Positions 13,120 to 59,487 of a stretch of 64,000 nt of DNA are shown in pieces. Position 1 is the first letter of the stretch, and every line of letters begins with the position of its first letter. Origin of the DNA: Parcubacteria group bacterium LiPW_15 (GTDB lineage: Bacteria; Patescibacteriota; Minisyncoccia; UBA6257; 2-01-FULL-56-20); assembly GCA_007375645.1 (NCBI GenBank), contig VMER01000001.1, forward strand, positions 337,576 to 401,575. The letters are read 5' to 3'. A program made the translations under genes and the position numbers. A model generated the notes under the pieces. The model was not told the DNA's origin and made no database searches. It saw nothing but the letters and a program-made list of their open reading frames with translations.

Positions 13120-13162
13120 GAACCAAGGGGTTGCAGGTTCGAGTCCTGCCGAGCGCACACCA
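13120..13162 (+). other. tRNA 3'-half-like fragment (T-arm GCAGG-TTCGAGT-CCTGC plus acceptor-like strand plus CCA) with no matching 5' half
   Basis: ...GGTTCGAGTCCTGCCGAGCGCACACCA lies immediately after tRNA-Arg; no complementary acceptor 5' strand found. Confidence 0.4.
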
Positions 13163-13227
13163 AACAAGAAATGCCCACAAGGGAGAGTTTTGTTTTATGT
13201 GCACAAAGCGTGCCGCTCAAGGGGATC

Positions 13228-13812
13228 TCACGCGCCCGCTTCGCCGCTCTCCGCGGGCAGGATCATTTTAATTTCTTCGAATTTGACGCCGCTCGGAAAA
13301 GTTAGCTGCGAAGGAATGCTCCCCGCCTCCACGAATCCCAAACTCTTATAAAAATCTATCGCTTTTTTATTCGCGGCTTGCACGGTTAAAAATATATCTT
13401 TCCCCGTTCCAAAATATTCGGAAATCTTGCCCCACATCTTCCGGGCCAACCCTAGGCCTTGATATGTCGGTAAGACATAGATCGCTCCGAGTTCATTACT
13501 TTCCGAATGTTTGACGCACCAGGCATAACCCACAACGGCATCGCCGTCTTTTATGACTAGCGCTTTTTCGTTCTCCGGCATGGCGCGCAATTCTTCGGCA
13601 GTTCCGACTATAGCCCTATCCGAAAACGACTTTTTAAAATCATTAAAATACCACTGAATGTCTTCGCGAGTTATGCCAGTTCCTTTGTCTGCATAGGTAT
13701 CCAGCCAGGTTTCGTATTCTACGCTTCTTAATCCCGCAGCGTCTTTGGGTAAAGCATCAGAGATACTAATCTTTTCTCCTTCAAACTTTTCGCCGTTTTC
13801 CATTTTAGGCAC
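13228..13812 (-). CDS. GNAT family N-acetyltransferase
   Basis: 194 aa; YVLPTYQGLGLARKMW...KAIDFYKSLGFVE acetyl-CoA-binding motifs. Confidence 0.8.
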   Translation of the reverse strand: MPKMENGEKFEGEKISISDALPKDAAGLRSVEYETWLDTYADKGTGITREDIQWYFNDFKKSFSDRAIVGTAEELRAMPENEKALVIKDGDAVVGYAWCVKHSESNELGAIYVLPTYQGLGLARKMWGKISEYFGTGKDIFLTVQAANKKAIDFYKSLGFVEAGSIPSQLTFPSGVKFEEIKMILPAESGEAGA

Positions 13813-13814
13813 TT

Positions 13815-13890
13815 TGGTGCACCCACAAGGGATCGAACCTTGGACCGTCTCCTTAAGAGGGAGCTGCTCTACCAGCTGAGCTATGGGTGC
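13815..13890 (-). tRNA. tRNA-Lys (anticodon CTT), CCA encoded
   Basis: reverse complement folds as GCACCCA-TA-GCTC..; anticodon loop CTCTTAA; T-loop TTCGATC. Confidence 0.85.
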
Positions 13891-35335: not shown

Positions 35336-35361
35336 TTTGTTTGCGCAGCCTGCTACCATTA

Positions 35362-35381
35362 CCTGCCTGCCGGCAGGCAGG
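35362..35381. repeat. perfect 20 bp palindrome CCTGCCTGCCGGCAGGCAGG (copy 1 of 3)
   Basis: exact match to copies at 51029 and 58962. Confidence 0.9.
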
Positions 35382-35444
35382 GATGACCCGGCAATTGCGT
35401 ATTAACGCACATCAATATTACCCAAATAAGCGTTTTTTGGCAAC

Positions 35445-43228: not shown

Positions 43229-43690
43229 TCAATCGATAAGTTTCGGGTGCCGATACACGGCGATCACCTTCCTCCCCGCCGCTGCCTCCCCTTCGAAATC
43301 AAGCTTATGCTTTACGGGTTCCCCGTTTTTCGAGTTGTTGCTTATTGCCATATCCCCTCCCCAAAAAAATCCCGCATGCCCGTGCCTTCCGTCGGCAGTC
43401 TGAATCTCCTCCCAAAACAAAACATCCCCTTGTGAGGGTTCCTCAACCTTCTCCCATCCGCTCGATTCCATATCCCTCAAAAGACCGCTAACAGTTGTGT
43501 GAATTTCTTTTATAAGCCCGGCCATTAAGAGAATCGAAGAAACATAAAAAGCACAGGAAAGATCTCCATTTTTTAAAATATCTTTTTCCTCTCCATCCAC
43601 CAGAGCGTAACAGTTCCTATAGGTATTGGCACCCAAGCTGTTTTCGATGGATTTTAAATATGTCTTTTTTTTGAGTAGTTTTATCATTTT
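43229..43690 (-). CDS. putative CHAP/NlpC-P60-like cysteine peptidase domain protein
   Basis: about 153 aa from MIKLLKKK; conserved Cys (SCAFYVSS) and His (GHAGFF) spacing; weak call. Confidence 0.4.
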   Translation of the reverse strand, partial: KMIKLLKKKTYLKSIENSLGANTYRNCYALVDGEEKDILKNGDLSCAFYVSSILLMAGLIKEIHTTVSGLLRDMESSGWEKVEEPSQGDVLFWEEIQTADGRHGHAGFFWGGDMAISNNSKNGEPVKHKLDFEGEAAAGRKVIAVYRHPKLID

Positions 43691-43708
43691 CTTTGCAGGG
43701 TGGACCCG

Positions 43709-43889
43709 GGGAGATATCTCACGCGCTCGTTCCACTCGCTTTTCAGAACCCACGGTTCTGAATAATCTCCTCCACGGGGAACCGAGCGCGGTTCCCCGAC
43801 CCCCTCCGCTGTTCGATTCTCCCTTAATCATAGAATTAAATCAACCGACCATAAAGGCCGATTTGATTTAATTTGTGGACCCGGGGAGA
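43709..43889 (+). mobile_element. miniature tRNA-3'-end-associated element, copy A
   Basis: 15 bp direct repeat gtggacccggggaga at 43709..43723 and 43875..43889 (the tRNA-Ala(CGC) 3' end); conserved core at 43768..43823; nested-palindrome hairpin. Confidence 0.55.
43768..43823 (+). repeat. conserved core of the miniature element: TCCTCCACGG-ggaaccgagcgcggttcc-CCGACCCCCTccgctGTTCGATTCTCCC
   Basis: shares CCACGG..G(N)TTCCCCGACCCC..GTyCGAkTC with copies B (57205..57259) and C (50750..50843, minus strand); the last 13 nt are an inverted copy of the tRNA-Ala(CGC) T-arm. Confidence 0.6.
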
Positions 43890-45047: not shown

Positions 45048-45248
45048 CAACTACAATTTCATGTTTTGTCGAACCGGCGTCGCCCTTCCCCTGCGGAAGG
45101 GCGCGCCTGTATCTCGGATATAAAAATCCGCCACAACGGCGGAACCGGGCTTTTTATTCCTCCGATGACTTCGCCAAAACATGAAATTTCCGCGGAGACA
45201 AACACACGCGTTCTATGGCATATAAAAAGAATGGGAATCGAACAGCGG

Positions 45249-45647
45249 TTATTTCTTTTGATGTTTCCGCTTATGTAACGCCTTGGATTTTTGGGTCAGA
45301 GCAAAAACCGAAAGAACCATTATATACGCGGCAACGGCTTCCGAAGAAACCTCGTAGGCATCCCCCAGGATAAAAGTGAAGCCCATAAGTATAAGAATGA
45401 TGACGGTCCAGGCAGCCACGAAAAGTTCGCCGGGGTGGCGATCCTCGGCGTGCATATCATACCAACGATCGAATTCTTTTGTGCCCACATACAATCCCAA
45501 AATACCTATATAGATTATGCTCATCGGTCCGATCAAGCGCTCGAAGCGGTTATGCAGAAAAAAATTCGCACAAATGAACATGAGAAATACGTAAGTCCAA
45601 ATGTTCGTAAGAACCCGCCAAATCTTTTCGTCTTTAAATACGCTCAT
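45249..45647 (-). CDS. hypothetical membrane protein
   Basis: 132 aa; 3-4 predicted TM helices. Confidence 0.5.
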   Translation of the reverse strand: MSVFKDEKIWRVLTNIWTYVFLMFICANFFLHNRFERLIGPMSIIYIGILGLYVGTKEFDRWYDMHAEDRHPGELFVAAWTVIILILMGFTFILGDAYEVSSEAVAAYIMVLSVFALTQKSKALHKRKHQKK

Positions 45648-50414: not shown

Positions 50415-50460
50415 GAGTTTATTTTAACAGAAGTTTAGGCTCTCTTAAAGACGGCGTCTG

Positions 50461-50532
50461 TGGCTGGGGTGAGAATCGGACTCACGACCCGACGCTTATG
50501 AAACGTCTGCTCTACCACTGAGCTACCCAGCC
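50461..50532 (-). tRNA. tRNA-Met/Ile2 (anticodon CAT), elongator type, no encoded CCA
   Basis: reverse complement folds as GGCTGGG-TA-GCTC-AGTGGTA-GAGC..; anticodon loop TTCATAA. Confidence 0.8.
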
Positions 50533-50621
50533 ATTTGAGTGAATCAAATACATTTTTAGCATCAAATCACGTTTTTGACAATCCGCACTTTAGATATATA
50601 ATAACGAAGCAATTAATTACC

Positions 50622-50694
50622 GCGGGAGGATTAGGGAATGGTTTCCCGGGGAGCCCCATAAGCTCTTGAAGCTGGTCCGATTCCAGCTCCCGCA
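50622..50694 (+). ncRNA. non-canonical tRNA-like gene (perfect 7 bp acceptor stem GCGGGAG/CTCCCGC, T-arm GCTGG-TCCGATT-CCAGC, irregular D/anticodon region)
   Basis: 73 nt; acceptor and T-arm fold by hand, but no canonical anticodon arm; its 3' end is the direct-repeat target of element C. Confidence 0.45.
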
Positions 50695-50964
50695 ACAAGA
50701 AACAAAAACACCCCGAGGGGTGTTTTTGTTTTGATGTTGGAATCGGACGTGAAGGGGGTCGGGGAAACGGCGGTTGCTCGCGCAAGTAAACAAACGTCTT
50801 TCCGCCGATAGGCGGGGCCGTGGCGGAAATACTGCAATTGGTAGCGAGGATAAAATGGCATTGAACATTTTAGCCGAGCGAACCAATTGATGGCTTGTCC
50901 TTCAAACCGCGGGGTGTTAGAAAATTCGCAAAGCGAATTTTGTCTGCTTCCAGCTCCCGCAACA
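50681..50964 (-). mobile_element. miniature tRNA-3'-end-associated element, copy C
   Basis: 17 bp direct repeat ttccagctcccgcaaca at 50681..50697 (the tRNA-like 3' end) and 50948..50964; conserved core at 50750..50843 on the minus strand, with a roughly 45 nt expansion of the hairpin; spacer homologous to copy B. Confidence 0.55.
50704..50731. terminator. bidirectional intrinsic terminator / centre of a 22 bp nested palindrome
   Basis: aaaaacaccccgaggggtgttttt. Confidence 0.65.
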
Positions 50965-51028
50965 GCTTCAGTTTTCAATTTCGCGAAGACAGCGTCAACC
51001 GCTTCCAGCGAGCGGTTGCGCCTGAATC

Positions 51029-51048
51029 CCTGCCTGCCGGCAGGCAGG
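51029..51048. repeat. perfect 20 bp palindrome CCTGCCTGCCGGCAGGCAGG (copy 2 of 3)
   Basis: exact match; lies in a roughly 900 bp ORF-poor region. Confidence 0.9.
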
Positions 51049-51201
51049 TCGTAGCAAAAATCTGCCATTCGGCAGAACCAATCTTTTTGCTCCTCCAATG
51101 TCCTCCGCAAAATCGAAAACTTCCGCCGTGGAAGTAAGAGAAAAAAATATACAAAAAAAGCCGGTGTCCGCCACATACGTGGTTTCGTGTCCGGCTGCGC
51201 T

Positions 51202-51447
51202 TCACTGGGAAGCAGAGGTGGAATTCGGATTAAGCTTCGCCCGCAGCTCCGCGAGGAGCTCGACCGGATTGACGCCCCTGGCGTCCTTCGGTAGCAGGGC
51301 GCAGGCAGCCTCAACCAGCTTCTCCTCGAATGGGGTTCTTGTGTGGTTGGGGCTGGACTCATGGATTTCCCGGAGCGTCTTCAGAACGACGGTCATGAGC
51401 TTATCGTTCCCGAGCGATCGCAGATCGATTTCGTCCTTTTTGGGCAT
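51202..51447 (-). CDS. hypothetical small GC-rich protein
   Basis: 81 aa from the ATG preceded by a GAGAGGAG RBS. Confidence 0.4.
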   Translation of the reverse strand: MPKKDEIDLRSLGNDKLMTVVLKTLREIHESSPNHTRTPFEEKLVEAACALLPKDARGVNPVELLAELRAKLNPNSTSASQ

Positions 51448-57027: not shown

Positions 57028-57144
57028 CCCACAATCTTAAACCCAGGACCCGCGCATATCAAAACTCCCTTTCCCGTTCGAGCCGCTAGATTAAATGCTT
57101 ATTTCTAAATACCATGCCAGAGCCAACTTTAAATATCTTTCAAA

Positions 57145-57322
57145 GTCGGCCGGAATCAAACAAAATTTGCTTCTCAAATTTTCTAACACCTTGTGGTTTT
57201 AGTATTTCCACCACGGGGAAACTTCCGTTTCCCCGACCCCTTTCCCGTTCGAGTCCGGCTGGATACAGAGCAACCAAAAAATGCCCGATGGGCATATTTT
57301 GGTTGCTGCGCGGTCGGCCGGA
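57145..57322 (+). mobile_element. miniature tRNA-3'-end-associated element, copy B
   Basis: direct repeat gtcggccgga(N)tc at 57145..57157 and 57313..57325 (inside the tRNA-Asp 3' region); conserved core at 57205..57259; nested palindrome. Confidence 0.55.
57275..57300. terminator. bidirectional intrinsic terminator between element B and tRNA-Asp
   Basis: aaaaaatgcccgatgggcatatttt inside the outer stem gcaaccaaaa/ttttggttgc. Confidence 0.65.
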
Positions 57323-57383
57323 CTCGAACCGGTAACCCCCGCCGTGACAGGGCGGTGCTCTAACCAAATTGAGCTACGACCGC
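57309..57383 (-). tRNA. tRNA-Asp (anticodon GTC), no encoded CCA
   Basis: reverse complement folds as GCGGTCG-TA-GCTC..; anticodon loop CTGTCAC; T-arm CCGG-TTCGAGT-CCGG. Confidence 0.8.
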
Positions 57384-57429: not shown

Positions 57430-59487
57430 CTATCCGATGAGCCTTAGGAATTCCTTTTCGCTTAGGATTTTGACCCCCAGCTCTTTAGCCTTCTTATACT
57501 TACTCCCCGGCTCGGCACCGGCCACGAGATAAGAGGTTTTGGAGCTAACCGATTCGGAAACGTCTCCCCCAAGTTCTCTTATCTTTTGTTTCGCAAGCTC
57601 GCGAGACATGGAATCCATGGAACCGGTGATGACAAAAGAAAGGTCTTTCAGTTTTTCGACTTTCACCGAAGGCGGCGCGAGAACAATCACTACCCCGGCG
57701 GCTTCAAGCTTTCCCAAAAGATGAGTATTCCTTTTTTCCTTGAACCATTCGTAAATGCTTTCGGCGACTTTCGGACCAATATCTTTTATCTCTTGTAATC
57801 GCTCCAGCGAAAGTCCGCCGTAAAAGTTCAAAAATTTGGAAATGCTCAAGCGCCCACTCTTCTTCTCCGGAAATATATTCGCAAGGGTTATCGCAGTTTC
57901 TTCGCCCACATGAATTATTCCTAAGGAGTAAATAAAGCGTGAAAGAGGGACTGATCTTTTCGCTTCGACTTCTTTTATAACATTTTCCGCCGACTTTTCA
58001 CCGAAACGAGGCAGGGCTTCCACATCTCCTTGTTTCAGGGTAAAAATGTCCGCCGCATCGACTATCAAGCCCTCGTCCAATAATCTATCTATTATTTTTG
58101 GACCCAAACCGTCCAAATTAAATCCTCCGCGGGATATAAAATGATAAAGCTGCTCCCTGTGTCGCGCGCCGCAATACTTGTTGGAACATTTATAAGCCAC
58201 CCCGTCACGAATGACCCCGGACCCGTCTACGGGACAGTTCTCCGGCATCTTGAACTTTTTTTCCTTGCCGGTCCGGAACTCCGGCAAAACCTTGGTTATT
58301 TGCGGGATAACGTCTCCGGCCCGGGAAACGATAACTGTGTCGCCAACCCTTACCCCAAGCCGTTCTATCTCATCCGCATTATGAAGGCTCGCGTGGGTTA
58401 TGGTCACGCCGCCCACGTTCACCGGACGCATCACCGCGACCGGCGTCAGCGCCCCAGTACGACCGACCTGAACCTCTATCGCCTCCACAATGGTCGTGGC
58501 TTCCCTCGGAGAAAACTTGTAGGCGATTCCCGCGCGCGGAGTTTTGCCGATTATCCCCGCTTCTTCGTATGTGGCGTTGTCGTTTATGGAAATAACTATG
58601 CCGTCTATTTCATAAGCAAGGCGCTCTCTCATTTTTAGAACGTCTTTATGAAATTCGAATATCTCTTCTATATTTCTCGCAACTATGCCGTGCGGATTGG
58701 TTTTGAGCCCGTATTTATTGAGTTCGGCGTATTCCTCGGATTTTGTTCTGTATCCGGGAGTAACAACATCGTAGGCGTAAAAATCCAATTTCCTTGAGGC
58801 GGTTATCTTCGGATCCAATTGCCGTATGGAACCGGCGGCGACATTGCGAGGATTCGCATAGGGTTTTTCTCCTTTTTTCTCCTGCTCGCGGTTCAGCCTC
58901 GCAAATTCTTTTTTGGTCAGGAAGGTTTCCCCGCGAACGATGAGGCGCTTGGGATATCCGCCCTGCCTGCCGGCAGGCAGGTCCCCTCTCTCGAGTCTTA
59001 AGGGTATCGCGTCAATAGTTTTCAAATTTTCCGTGACATCTTCGCCGATCATGCCGTCTCCGCGCGTGGACCCGGAAACAAAGAGGCCATCTTCGTAGAT
59101 AAGCTCCATCGCGAGACCGTCCATTTTTAGATCGCAATAAAATCCGTTTTTTGCGAAACTAGTTTTGGGTCCGAAATAATTTTTTAGACGCGTGAGCCAT
59201 TCCTGAATATCCTGCGGGGAAAATGCGTCGTTTAGGGAGATCATCCGCGTTCCGTGCCTGACTTTTTTAAAAGCGGAAAGCGGCTTTCCCCCAACCCGTT
59301 GAGTCGGTGAATCTTTGGCAATAAATTCCGGATAGCGCGATTCCAGATCAAAAAGCTCCTTCTTTAAAGAGTCCAGGGCCCCTTCGGAAATAAGAGATTT
59401 ATCCAAAACATGGTACGCGTAGCGGTACTTATTTATTTCCGTCTTTAGTTTTTCGATACGCTTCTTGGCCTCATCCTTAGCCGTCAT
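57430..59487 (-). CDS. ligA: NAD-dependent DNA ligase
   Basis: 685 aa; adenylation KxDG region, OB fold, Zn finger, HhH and BRCT; carries an in-frame 7 aa insertion LPAGRQG encoded by the 20 bp palindrome. Confidence 0.95.
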   Translation of the reverse strand: MTAKDEAKKRIEKLKTEINKYRYAYHVLDKSLISEGALDSLKKELFDLESRYPEFIAKDSPTQRVGGKPLSAFKKVRHGTRMISLNDAFSPQDIQEWLTRLKNYFGPKTSFAKNGFYCDLKMDGLAMELIYEDGLFVSGSTRGDGMIGEDVTENLKTIDAIPLRLERGDLPAGRQGGYPKRLIVRGETFLTKKEFARLNREQEKKGEKPYANPRNVAAGSIRQLDPKITASRKLDFYAYDVVTPGYRTKSEEYAELNKYGLKTNPHGIVARNIEEIFEFHKDVLKMRERLAYEIDGIVISINDNATYEEAGIIGKTPRAGIAYKFSPREATTIVEAIEVQVGRTGALTPVAVMRPVNVGGVTITHASLHNADEIERLGVRVGDTVIVSRAGDVIPQITKVLPEFRTGKEKKFKMPENCPVDGSGVIRDGVAYKCSNKYCGARHREQLYHFISRGGFNLDGLGPKIIDRLLDEGLIVDAADIFTLKQGDVEALPRFGEKSAENVIKEVEAKRSVPLSRFIYSLGIIHVGEETAITLANIFPEKKSGRLSISKFLNFYGGLSLERLQEIKDIGPKVAESIYEWFKEKRNTHLLGKLEAAGVVIVLAPPSVKVEKLKDLSFVITGSMDSMSRELAKQKIRELGGDVSESVSSKTSYLVAGAEPGSKYKKAKELGVKILSEKEFLRLIG
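58962..58981. repeat. perfect 20 bp palindrome CCTGCCTGCCGGCAGGCAGG (copy 3 of 3), inside the ligA coding sequence
   Basis: exact match; ligA remains a continuous ORF across it. Confidence 0.9.

Follow-up and report, generated by a model that had tools for sequence, protein, structure and literature searches.

The gene for tRNA-Asp(GTC) in the window, by which we mean the whole 64,000-nucleotide stretch of Parcubacteria group bacterium LiPW_15 DNA analysed here, is adjoined at positions 57145-57307 by a structured module that contains both a direct and an inverted copy of parts of this tRNA gene. This raises the question of what kind of entity lies against the 3' end of an intact tRNA gene, and of whether its inverted copy was made at this site or arrived with the rest of the module. 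In an initial annotation the module was taken for one of several element copies situated at tRNA 3' ends, with the inverted segment being generated from the target at each site. Our analysis bears out the description, including the location at the tRNA 3' end, but not the in situ generation of the inverted segment; beyond it, we found that the targets are not restricted to tRNAs, that the tail of the core is a mirror repeat, and that older, truncated copies lie to the left of the module.

Anatomy of the module adjoining tRNA-Asp

The target gene lies intact on the minus strand at 57308-57383 and was recovered by both ARAGORN and Rfam. All features previously described for this locus, namely the direct repeat, the core, the inverted T-arm copy and the nested palindrome, are present. 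The direct repeat GTCGGCCGGA.TC, found at 57145 and 57313, can be extended to GTCGGCCGGAaTCaAAC and GTCGGCCGGACTCGAAC, which agree at 15 of 17 positions. The right-hand copy, D_R (57313-57329), is the functional one within tRNA-Asp, and the left-hand copy, D_L (GTCGGCCGGAaTCaAAC, 57145-57161, plus strand), is a displaced 3' end of tRNA-Asp in antisense, which runs from the 3' strand of the acceptor to the T-loop and carries two fixed mismatches in the T-loop. On the plus strand D_L is followed by hp0, a variable A/T-rich hairpin (AAAATTTG-cttct-CAAATTTT, 57162-57182) delineated by folding, and by hp1, a conserved hairpin (CTAACACC-ttgt-GGTTTTAG, 57183-57202) with covarying stems, which the family alignment recovers in nearly all members. 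A conserved pyrimidine-rich joiner (TATTTCCACCA, 57203-57213, plus strand), with the consensus yTTCCnCCA in the family alignment, leads into the core hairpin hp3 (57214-57235, plus strand), which is composed of a purine arm CGGGGAAAC, the loop TTCC and a pyrimidine arm GTTTCCCCG. This is succeeded by a linker A and the tail CCCCTTTCCC (57236-57246, plus strand), in which CCCCTTT mirrors the pyrimidine arm, so that the core as a whole, CACGGGGAAAC-TTCC-GTTTCCCCG-A-CCCCTTTCCC, spans 57212-57246. Directly after the tail comes the inverted copy of the target, IR (GTTCGAGTCCGGC, 57247-57259, plus strand), which corresponds in sense to the T-loop and the 3' strand of the T-stem of tRNA-Asp and matches this gene at 13 of 13 positions.

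The remaining spacer (57260-57307) holds a palindromic, bidirectional terminator-like hairpin (57270-57306), whose inner stem at 57281-57295 is G+C-rich, is accompanied by a T run and is predicted to act as an intrinsic terminator on both strands. The nested palindrome detected by the repeat finder has 46-nt arms at 57241-57286 and 57290-57335, which are 78% complementary. Folding of the locus yielded the helices P1, hp0, hp1 and hp3 together with the terminator on either strand, with z = -4.2 and -3.1. The stretch 57203-57246 fits the family consensus (nhmmer E = 2e-14), the core of which reads yTTCCnCCACGG-purine arm-loop-pyrimidine arm-GA-mirrored tail, and the locus displays the layout of the family: a displaced gene end on the left, an IR directly after the tail and an intact gene end on the right.

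Other copies and remnants in the window

Two further copies were identified in the window. Copy A (43700-43874, plus strand) lies at tRNA-Ala(CGC) and comprises a D_L at 43700-43714 followed by the left end TATCTCAC, the core motif at 43792-43803 and an IR at 43811-43823. Copy C (50700-50964, minus strand) is in inverted orientation at a tRNA-like gene (50622-50693) and has extra insertions after hp1 and within the hp3 loop. The module at tRNA-Asp, hereafter locus B, aligns with copy C over 51 nt of spacer at 80% identity and over 37 nt of core at 84% in the repeat finder output, and the three-way alignment of A, B and C shows homology throughout the module. The earlier claim that the entire module is homologous and not just a single hairpin thus held, as did the alignment of the B and C spacers on which it had been based. 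The motif TTCCCCGACCCC occurs 3 times in the window against an expectation of 0.6.

Left of locus B lies the remnant of an older copy (CCCTTTCCCGTTCGAGCCGC, 57062-57085, plus strand), a direct repeat of 57238-57259 that retains only the 3' part of the core tail and the inverted T-arm. A solo remnant, TGGGAATCGAAC-AGCGG, is found downstream of tRNA-Pro (45228-45249, minus strand) and consists of an IR and a stub of the tail, the loss of the remainder reaching as far as the stop codon of the ORF next to it. Comparable truncated remnants were detected at L044, L048, L001, L111 and L119 (L numbers denote loci in other genomes), and all truncated remnants end within a few bases of the boundary between CCCC and YTT, with only the 3' part being retained. 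Truncation at the putative triplex described below would fit the stalling of a polymerase or reverse transcriptase at this point, or a triplex-induced deletion.

Several other observations concern the same flanks. Long minus-strand ORFs at 43229-43831 and 50631-51362 traverse copies A and C; their element-overlapping parts are almost certainly spurious, and the true start of the Amidase_5-like gene is probably near 43690. The tRNA-like gene next to copy C, on the plus strand, is preceded by a perfect promoter, TTGACA-16-TATAAT (region 50575-50693). It was missed by ARAGORN and by the Rfam tRNA model, scores just 33.5 bits against the tRNA-Sec model, and has a 6-bp D stem, the loop CCCAUAA and the T-loop TCCGAUU. 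The gene is kept in L128-L130, where the pair of tRNA-Met and tRNA-like genes is inverted relative to the window. At approximately 5660-5860 of L130 the orthologue of the tRNA-Met at window positions 50460-50532 is split in the anticodon loop by ~240 nt, and this insert contains a second, complete tRNA-Met.

The window also holds signs of other small repeats and insertions. The perfect palindrome CCCTGCCTGCCGGCAGGCAGG occurs three times (35361-35384, 51026-51051 and 58959-58983), once within the reading frame of LigA (57430-59487, minus strand), with ..DLPAGRQGG.. as its translation; this looks like a second small repeat family able to sit inside coding sequence. After tRNA-Arg, 13127-13194 on the plus strand contains a tRNA-Asp-like 3' half with a terminator. 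This stretch shares 75% similarity with 57272-57339 in reverse complement and is probably the displaced tRNA fragment of another integration event. Next to it, at 13195-13250, GATCTCACGCGCCCGCTTCGCC, the left end also seen in copy A, comes after a degenerate copy of the 3' end of tRNA-Lys. The space from there to tRNA-Lys itself (13815-13890) is occupied, in place of hp1 and the core, by a GNAT acetyltransferase ORF (13228-13812, minus strand). This arrangement (13195-13890) may represent an element in decay or a relative that carries cargo. Directly downstream of tRNA-Pro (45056-45190) a 14-nt inverted repeat, AATTTCATGTTTTG / CAAAACATGAAATT, encloses ~107 nt and may represent a small insertion of another kind.

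A family of elements at gene ends of Patescibacteria

A scan of one genome per species with the exact motif CCACGG-N8-38-TTCCCCGACCCCYT recovered at least 120 loci. Among these matches, approximately 100 of those listed are true copies, nearly all from Patescibacteria (Parcubacteria, Saccharibacteria and related groups), and the other matches listed are chance matches in high-GC genomes. The elements are ~110-170 nt long and non-coding; a conserved small ORF was considered and rejected, as the frames that traverse the element are not the same in L119 and L023. Among the matches listed, 50 copies adjoin the 3' end of a convergent tRNA gene at a distance of 25-130 nt, with about half of all true copies being 25-80 nt away, and together cover at least 16 tRNA specificities. 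The targets of other copies listed are protein-coding. Where the gene is convergent the overlap is with its 3' end, as at rpsI (in five genomes) and lepA; where it is co-directional the overlap is with its 5' end, as at fusA and at a GT4 glycosyltransferase gene. In all copies listed the intact gene lies to the right of the element in the orientation of the motif. A left copy of the terminal segment of that gene, 15-100 nt in length, precedes the element body, and the core tail is directly followed by a segment that spans the junction and reads as the target in reverse complement. In tRNA genes this junction is fixed at the boundary of the T-stem 3' strand and the T-loop, reading ...GGA/ATCGAAC on the right and ...GGA/ATCTCAC, ATCAAAC or similar on the left, with the slash marking the junction.

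The IR matches its own tRNA over a median of 12.5 nt and other tRNAs over 6 nt, and all five T-stem positions agree at 25 of 42 loci as against 1.9% of cross pairs. Hence the general conservation of T-loops, which the initial annotation had named among the findings that would refute it, does not explain the inverted segment. The segment does track the local gene, as had been claimed for the copies in the window with the odd TCCGATT loop of copy C included, and it does so family-wide.

In L002, L030, L083, L085, L096 and L112 the displaced tRNA end (..GGA) is directly followed by the 9-mer CGCTTCGCT and this in turn by the left end (ATCTCAC/ATCGAAC); the 9-mer is also found within hp2 of many copies. 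Variant elements in inverted orientation lie immediately to the left of the main copy at approximately 1513-1586 of L016, where GTGCAC is present on both flanks, and upstream in L116; thus tRNA flanks can host several generations and orientations of the family.

The family is apparently undescribed. Rfam searches at gathering and permissive thresholds returned tRNA matches and nothing else with E < 0.05, be it tmRNA, HEARO, IS605-orfB or a ribozyme, and the motif was not found in full-text literature searches by topic and by sequence string. A scan of 2.9 million viral contigs gave only 3 matches, all by chance. Clustering of the genes that neighbour the ~100 copies listed revealed only housekeeping functions, with no recombinase, transposase or reverse transcriptase, and no integrase, recombinase, transposase, reverse transcriptase or DEDD recombinase was detected among the 40 large ORFs of the window. 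A search for a conserved promoter in the element was likewise negative.

A core hairpin with a mirrored tail

The core hairpin hp3 is paired in 98.3% of the cells of the family alignment and shows 26 double-sided changes, a number reached by 0 of 500 shuffles. Beyond the linker GA, the tail mirrors the pyrimidine arm and does not complement it: in the typical core GGGG-AAA pairs with TTT-CCCC and is then followed by CCCC-YTT, and in 75 of 87 copies the stem has as many A residues as there are pyrimidines after CCCC. In divergent copies, obtained by profile searches or from relatives, all three strands change in concert, giving GGGAAA / TTTCCC / CCCTTT, GGGAGGAA / TTCCTCCC / CCCTCCTT (8 of 8 positions), GGGAGAAA / TTTCTCCC / CCC-CA-CTTT, GGAGGGGA / TCCCCTCC / CC-A-CCCCT and GGAAGGGG / CCCCTTCC / CC-CA-TCCC. 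This three-way covariation is the basis on which we propose that the core is laid out as an intramolecular triplex. On the plus strand CCCCTTT would act as third strand of a Y·R-Y triplex, to which an R·R-Y triplex would correspond on the minus strand. Four adjacent C+·G-C triplets would be unstable at neutral pH, which counts against the triplex.

As to the strand on which the structure acts, a raw MFE comparison favoured the minus strand, a preference that was reversed under composition control. G-U wobble pairs are rare on either strand (2 versus 7 in ~690 pairs of hp1; 19 versus 31 in P1), and their counts in P1, hp1 and hp3 do not discriminate the functional strand. The scarcity of wobble on both strands mildly favours a structure at the DNA level.

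Conservation between orthologous loci

To gauge constraint, locus B was compared with its counterpart in the relative L124, in which the neighbouring CapA protein is 71% identical. D_L is identical at 17 of 17 positions, both T-loop mismatches included, hp1 and the core together at 52 of 54, and the tail and IR at 14 of 14, as opposed to 44% identity in hp0, 52% in the spacer and 49% in the left flank. Given this disparity (96-100% versus 44-52%), the conserved parts are under selection, be it for the propagation of the element itself or for a role in the host; the strong conservation in place across genera could reflect a host function instead.

Mobility and the origin of the gene end

Orthologous sites in relatives, which were obtained via the neighbouring proteins, differ in their occupancy. 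At the 3' flank of the tRNA-like gene, where copy C resides in the window, L128 and L129 have no element. L130 carries a 147-nt unit there, which comprises the left end GCAGAC, hp1, a variant core, the IR CAGTCCGATTCCAAGTC and a new terminator. Only the gene end, 16 nt, is duplicated at this site, and the original terminator remains on the left; the terminator of the inserted unit differs from the original in L130 as compared to L129, and the same holds in L011 and L016. At the tRNA-Asp site the B type is present in L124 and L130, a different subfamily in L129, and a rearranged locus in L127.

The protein-coding targets bear more directly on the provenance of the gene ends. The displaced ends of rpsI remain in frame and encode PHWSKR, HEWSKR and PQWKK, each followed by a stop, and the functional end encodes PQWSKR and a stop with different codons; L053 has three successive rpsI ends. 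The displaced and functional fusA segments have 4 differences in 60 nt, all of them synonymous, and the codons within MPREY read CCC CGA in one copy versus CCA AGG in the other. The IR matches the right-hand, functional gene end, in L009 at 20 of 20 positions. In view of the synonymous codon differences and the element's own terminator, the element most likely brings both the IR and the new gene end with it, as opposed to their being made in situ. This agrees with the behaviour of integrative elements that bring a replacement gene end, a pattern matched at rpsI, fusA and L130 (PMC7192596, PMC1762012). The proposal that the IR is generated from the target at each site is therefore unsupported as stated, in view of the rpsI and fusA differences and the L130 terminator. 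Templating in situ may yet occur when an element first arrives on a new target. Near-identical left and right repeats are found at L044 (score 94, 103 nt), L086 (score 43, 46 nt) and L022 (23 of 23 positions), and these are also compatible with duplication in situ.

Proposed mechanism and competing explanations

We propose, with moderate confidence, that small, non-coding and non-autonomous integrative elements form a family throughout the Patescibacteria, of which locus B is one resident member. On the plus strand the mobile unit would consist of a T-loop-like left end, hp0, hp1 and sometimes hp2, the core hairpin with its mirrored tail, the IR, its own terminator or spacer, and a replacement copy of the terminal segment of the target gene. 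Such a unit would enter at a fixed point just inside the gene end, in a tRNA between the T-loop and the 3' strand of the T-stem. What had been the end of the gene would thereby be shifted to the left as the pseudo-fragment D_L, with D_R, supplied by the element, taking over its function. By pairing with this supplied end, the IR may form a long hairpin in which the target is displayed in duplex form, and the triplex core may serve as a conserved handle for a trans-acting enzyme, either a recombinase that works on a folded single strand or a reverse transcriptase, with single-stranded DNA or RNA as the intermediate. Mobility is assumed to be supplied in trans, and excised or circular forms were not seen. 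Similar bodies are present at many different genes, and this model gives no account of how a new target specificity is acquired, which counts against it.

A bolder version, which we regard as possible though doubtful, would make the element a programmable, nucleic-acid-guided integration module that carries no protein. The hairpin of IR and gene end would then be an exchangeable homology guide on a folded single strand, and the triplex core a platform for a host enzyme, or even itself catalytic, so that with a different hairpin the element could be directed to any gene end.

The question of whether the gene end is carried or copied decides between the model of an integrative element and the unlikely scenario in which every insertion duplicates its local target as a long and variable target-site duplication and synthesises the IR from it, for instance by fold-back or template switching at the terminator palindrome. 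Local copying would readily yield an IR that is the exact complement of the local gene across the insertion point, as seen at many loci; in L023, for example, it matches AAATTGGGGT/GGGGCG, and in L086 the arms of the palindrome are perfect over 23-29 nt. It would also account for the nearly identical repeats of L044, L086 and L022 and for similar bodies at so many different targets. Yet displaced and functional ends that differ synonymously, both being in frame, are not what such copying would leave behind, nor are inserted terminators that do not resemble the original (L130 versus L129, L011, L016). Moreover, the repeat stops exactly at the gene end and not at a variable staggered cut, and the left arm of the L086 terminator is a direct copy rather than a fold-back copy. 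The simplest form of this idea, a staggered-cut duplication with fold-back at the terminator, is contradicted by the differing terminators and the synonymous differences and was rejected.

The in-place conservation raises a different prospect, namely that the module is immobile and belongs to the host as a structured non-coding RNA or cis-element at highly expressed genes, be it an antisense RNA, a terminator-insulator or an RNA whose closing stem is borrowed from the end of its neighbour. The strong conservation of the orthologous locus amidst diverging flanks, the identical four-helix fold on either strand (with the z scores given above) and the bidirectional terminator-like hairpin at the end of the element all speak for such a role; we nevertheless consider it distinctly unlikely, because orthologous sites can be empty or filled or harbour different subfamilies, displaced fragments of gene ends occur in stacks, the element yielded no conserved promoter, no Rfam family matches, and G-U wobble is nearly absent on both strands, which is unusual for a structurally selected RNA. 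It is very improbable that the copies are attL/attR scars of large integrase-encoding islands or prophages in tRNA genes that were later deleted. Direct repeats of the tRNA 3' end with displaced gene ends are the classical signature of these (PMC7192596, PMC1762012), and the tRNA flanks of these genomes harbour several other insertion remnants. Against this, the ~100 copies listed are uniformly small with a conserved internal structure, no integrase lies near any of them, the motif is absent from the 2.9 million viral contigs save for chance matches, and one body is found at many unrelated targets.

A number of other candidates were discarded. ARAGORN found neither a tmRNA nor a two-piece tmRNA, and the core motifs of hammerhead or HDV-like ribozymes are absent. 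A retroviral-type primer-binding site and polypurine tract would lie on opposite strands, and non-tRNA targets exist. Targeting of GTTC in the manner of IS91 was dismissed, as GTTC is missing from the non-tRNA targets.

Relationship to known systems

The closest known systems are the tRNA-targeting integrative elements in terms of behaviour and, by a possible and purely functional analogy, folded single-strand recombination sites. Like the tRNA- and tmRNA-targeting elements with a tyrosine integrase, members of this family insert just inside the end of a conserved gene, which stays intact by means of a replacement end, displace the old end as a direct repeat, stack fragments upon repeated insertion and prefer the T-arm. 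Mycobacteriophage Ms6, for one, integrates at the T-loop of tRNA-Ala (PMC1762012; PMC7192596). Unlike such elements, they are ~150 nt long without an integrase and use one body for dozens of unrelated targets, their IR makes a long hairpin with the replacement end, they possess a triplex-type core, and their junction is at the T-stem/T-loop boundary with a T-loop that is not identical on the two sides. Of the hallmarks of tyrosine-integrase elements, flanking tRNA 3' repeats and an intact tRNA are present; an integrase was found neither beside the ~100 copies listed nor among the 40 large ORFs of the window, and the viral contigs revealed no phage or island attP. Integrase-less derivatives of integrative elements are known as CIMEs.

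Folded single-strand recombination sites include the attC sites of integrons and the hairpin of the CTX-phage attP(+) that is used by XerCD. By analogy with these, a single strand of the element would fold such that two inverted segments rebuild a duplex site, and as in these sites the sequence varies while the structure is kept and G-T wobble is hardly tolerated. The element differs from them in that no IntI- or Xer-type core sites and no recombinase were found, and in that the target differs for each copy.

With regard to the core, H-DNA is formed by homopurine-homopyrimidine mirror repeats, and RNA triple helices are exemplified by the ENE of MALAT1 and PAN. The succession of purine arm, loop, pyrimidine arm, short linker and mirrored pyrimidine strand is the textbook Y·R-Y layout, and the core is a mirror repeat of the H-DNA kind in which the third strand covaries with the duplex. 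In contrast to H-DNA and the ENE, it sits in a multicopy element beside a target-matched stem and is C-rich, with 3-4 adjacent C·G-C triplets.

In being small, non-coding, multicopy, structured and presumably mobilised in trans, the elements recall MITEs and REP/REPIN sequences. Unlike MITEs they have no terminal inverted repeats and no short fixed target-site duplication: their flanking repeats are gene-specific and 15-100 nt long, and their ends are ATCTCAC/ATCAAAC on one side and the tail with the IR on the other. They also differ from IS200/IS605-derived and REP hairpins in that the flanking hairpins vary between loci and contain the local gene end. Group II introns, with their EBS/IBS pairing, and IS110 elements, with their bridge RNAs, are guide-carrying mobile elements, and like them the present elements carry a target-complementary segment that spans the insertion point; unlike them, they lack the fold of an intron or ribozyme, neither a reverse transcriptase nor a DEDD recombinase lies next to the copies listed, and the complementary segment pairs with the element's own copy of the target. 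As regards a possible retroelement of the SINE-like, target-primed kind, the truncated copies retain only the 3' part, and no reverse transcriptase was detected among the 40 large ORFs of the 64-kb window. The group I introns of Patescibacteria tRNAs lie in the anticodon loop and are unrelated to the element (PMC13011429).

Implications

If our interpretation is correct, the smallest bacterial genomes known carry a widespread and previously unannotated class of repeats, which remodels the ends of genes for tRNAs, ribosomal proteins and translation factors without breaking them. Its presence would account for tRNA-fragment pseudogenes and spurious ORFs in CPR genomes, such as those at 43229-43831 and 50631-51362 in the window. 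The core would represent a natural, conserved intramolecular triple helix backed by three-way covariation, and a gene-less element of 150 nt that finds and replaces gene ends would bear on programmable DNA insertion. Should the more doubtful reading as a guided module prove true, the family would constitute a new class of guided mobile element, and this would explain how one body has colonised dozens of essential genes in reduced genomes.
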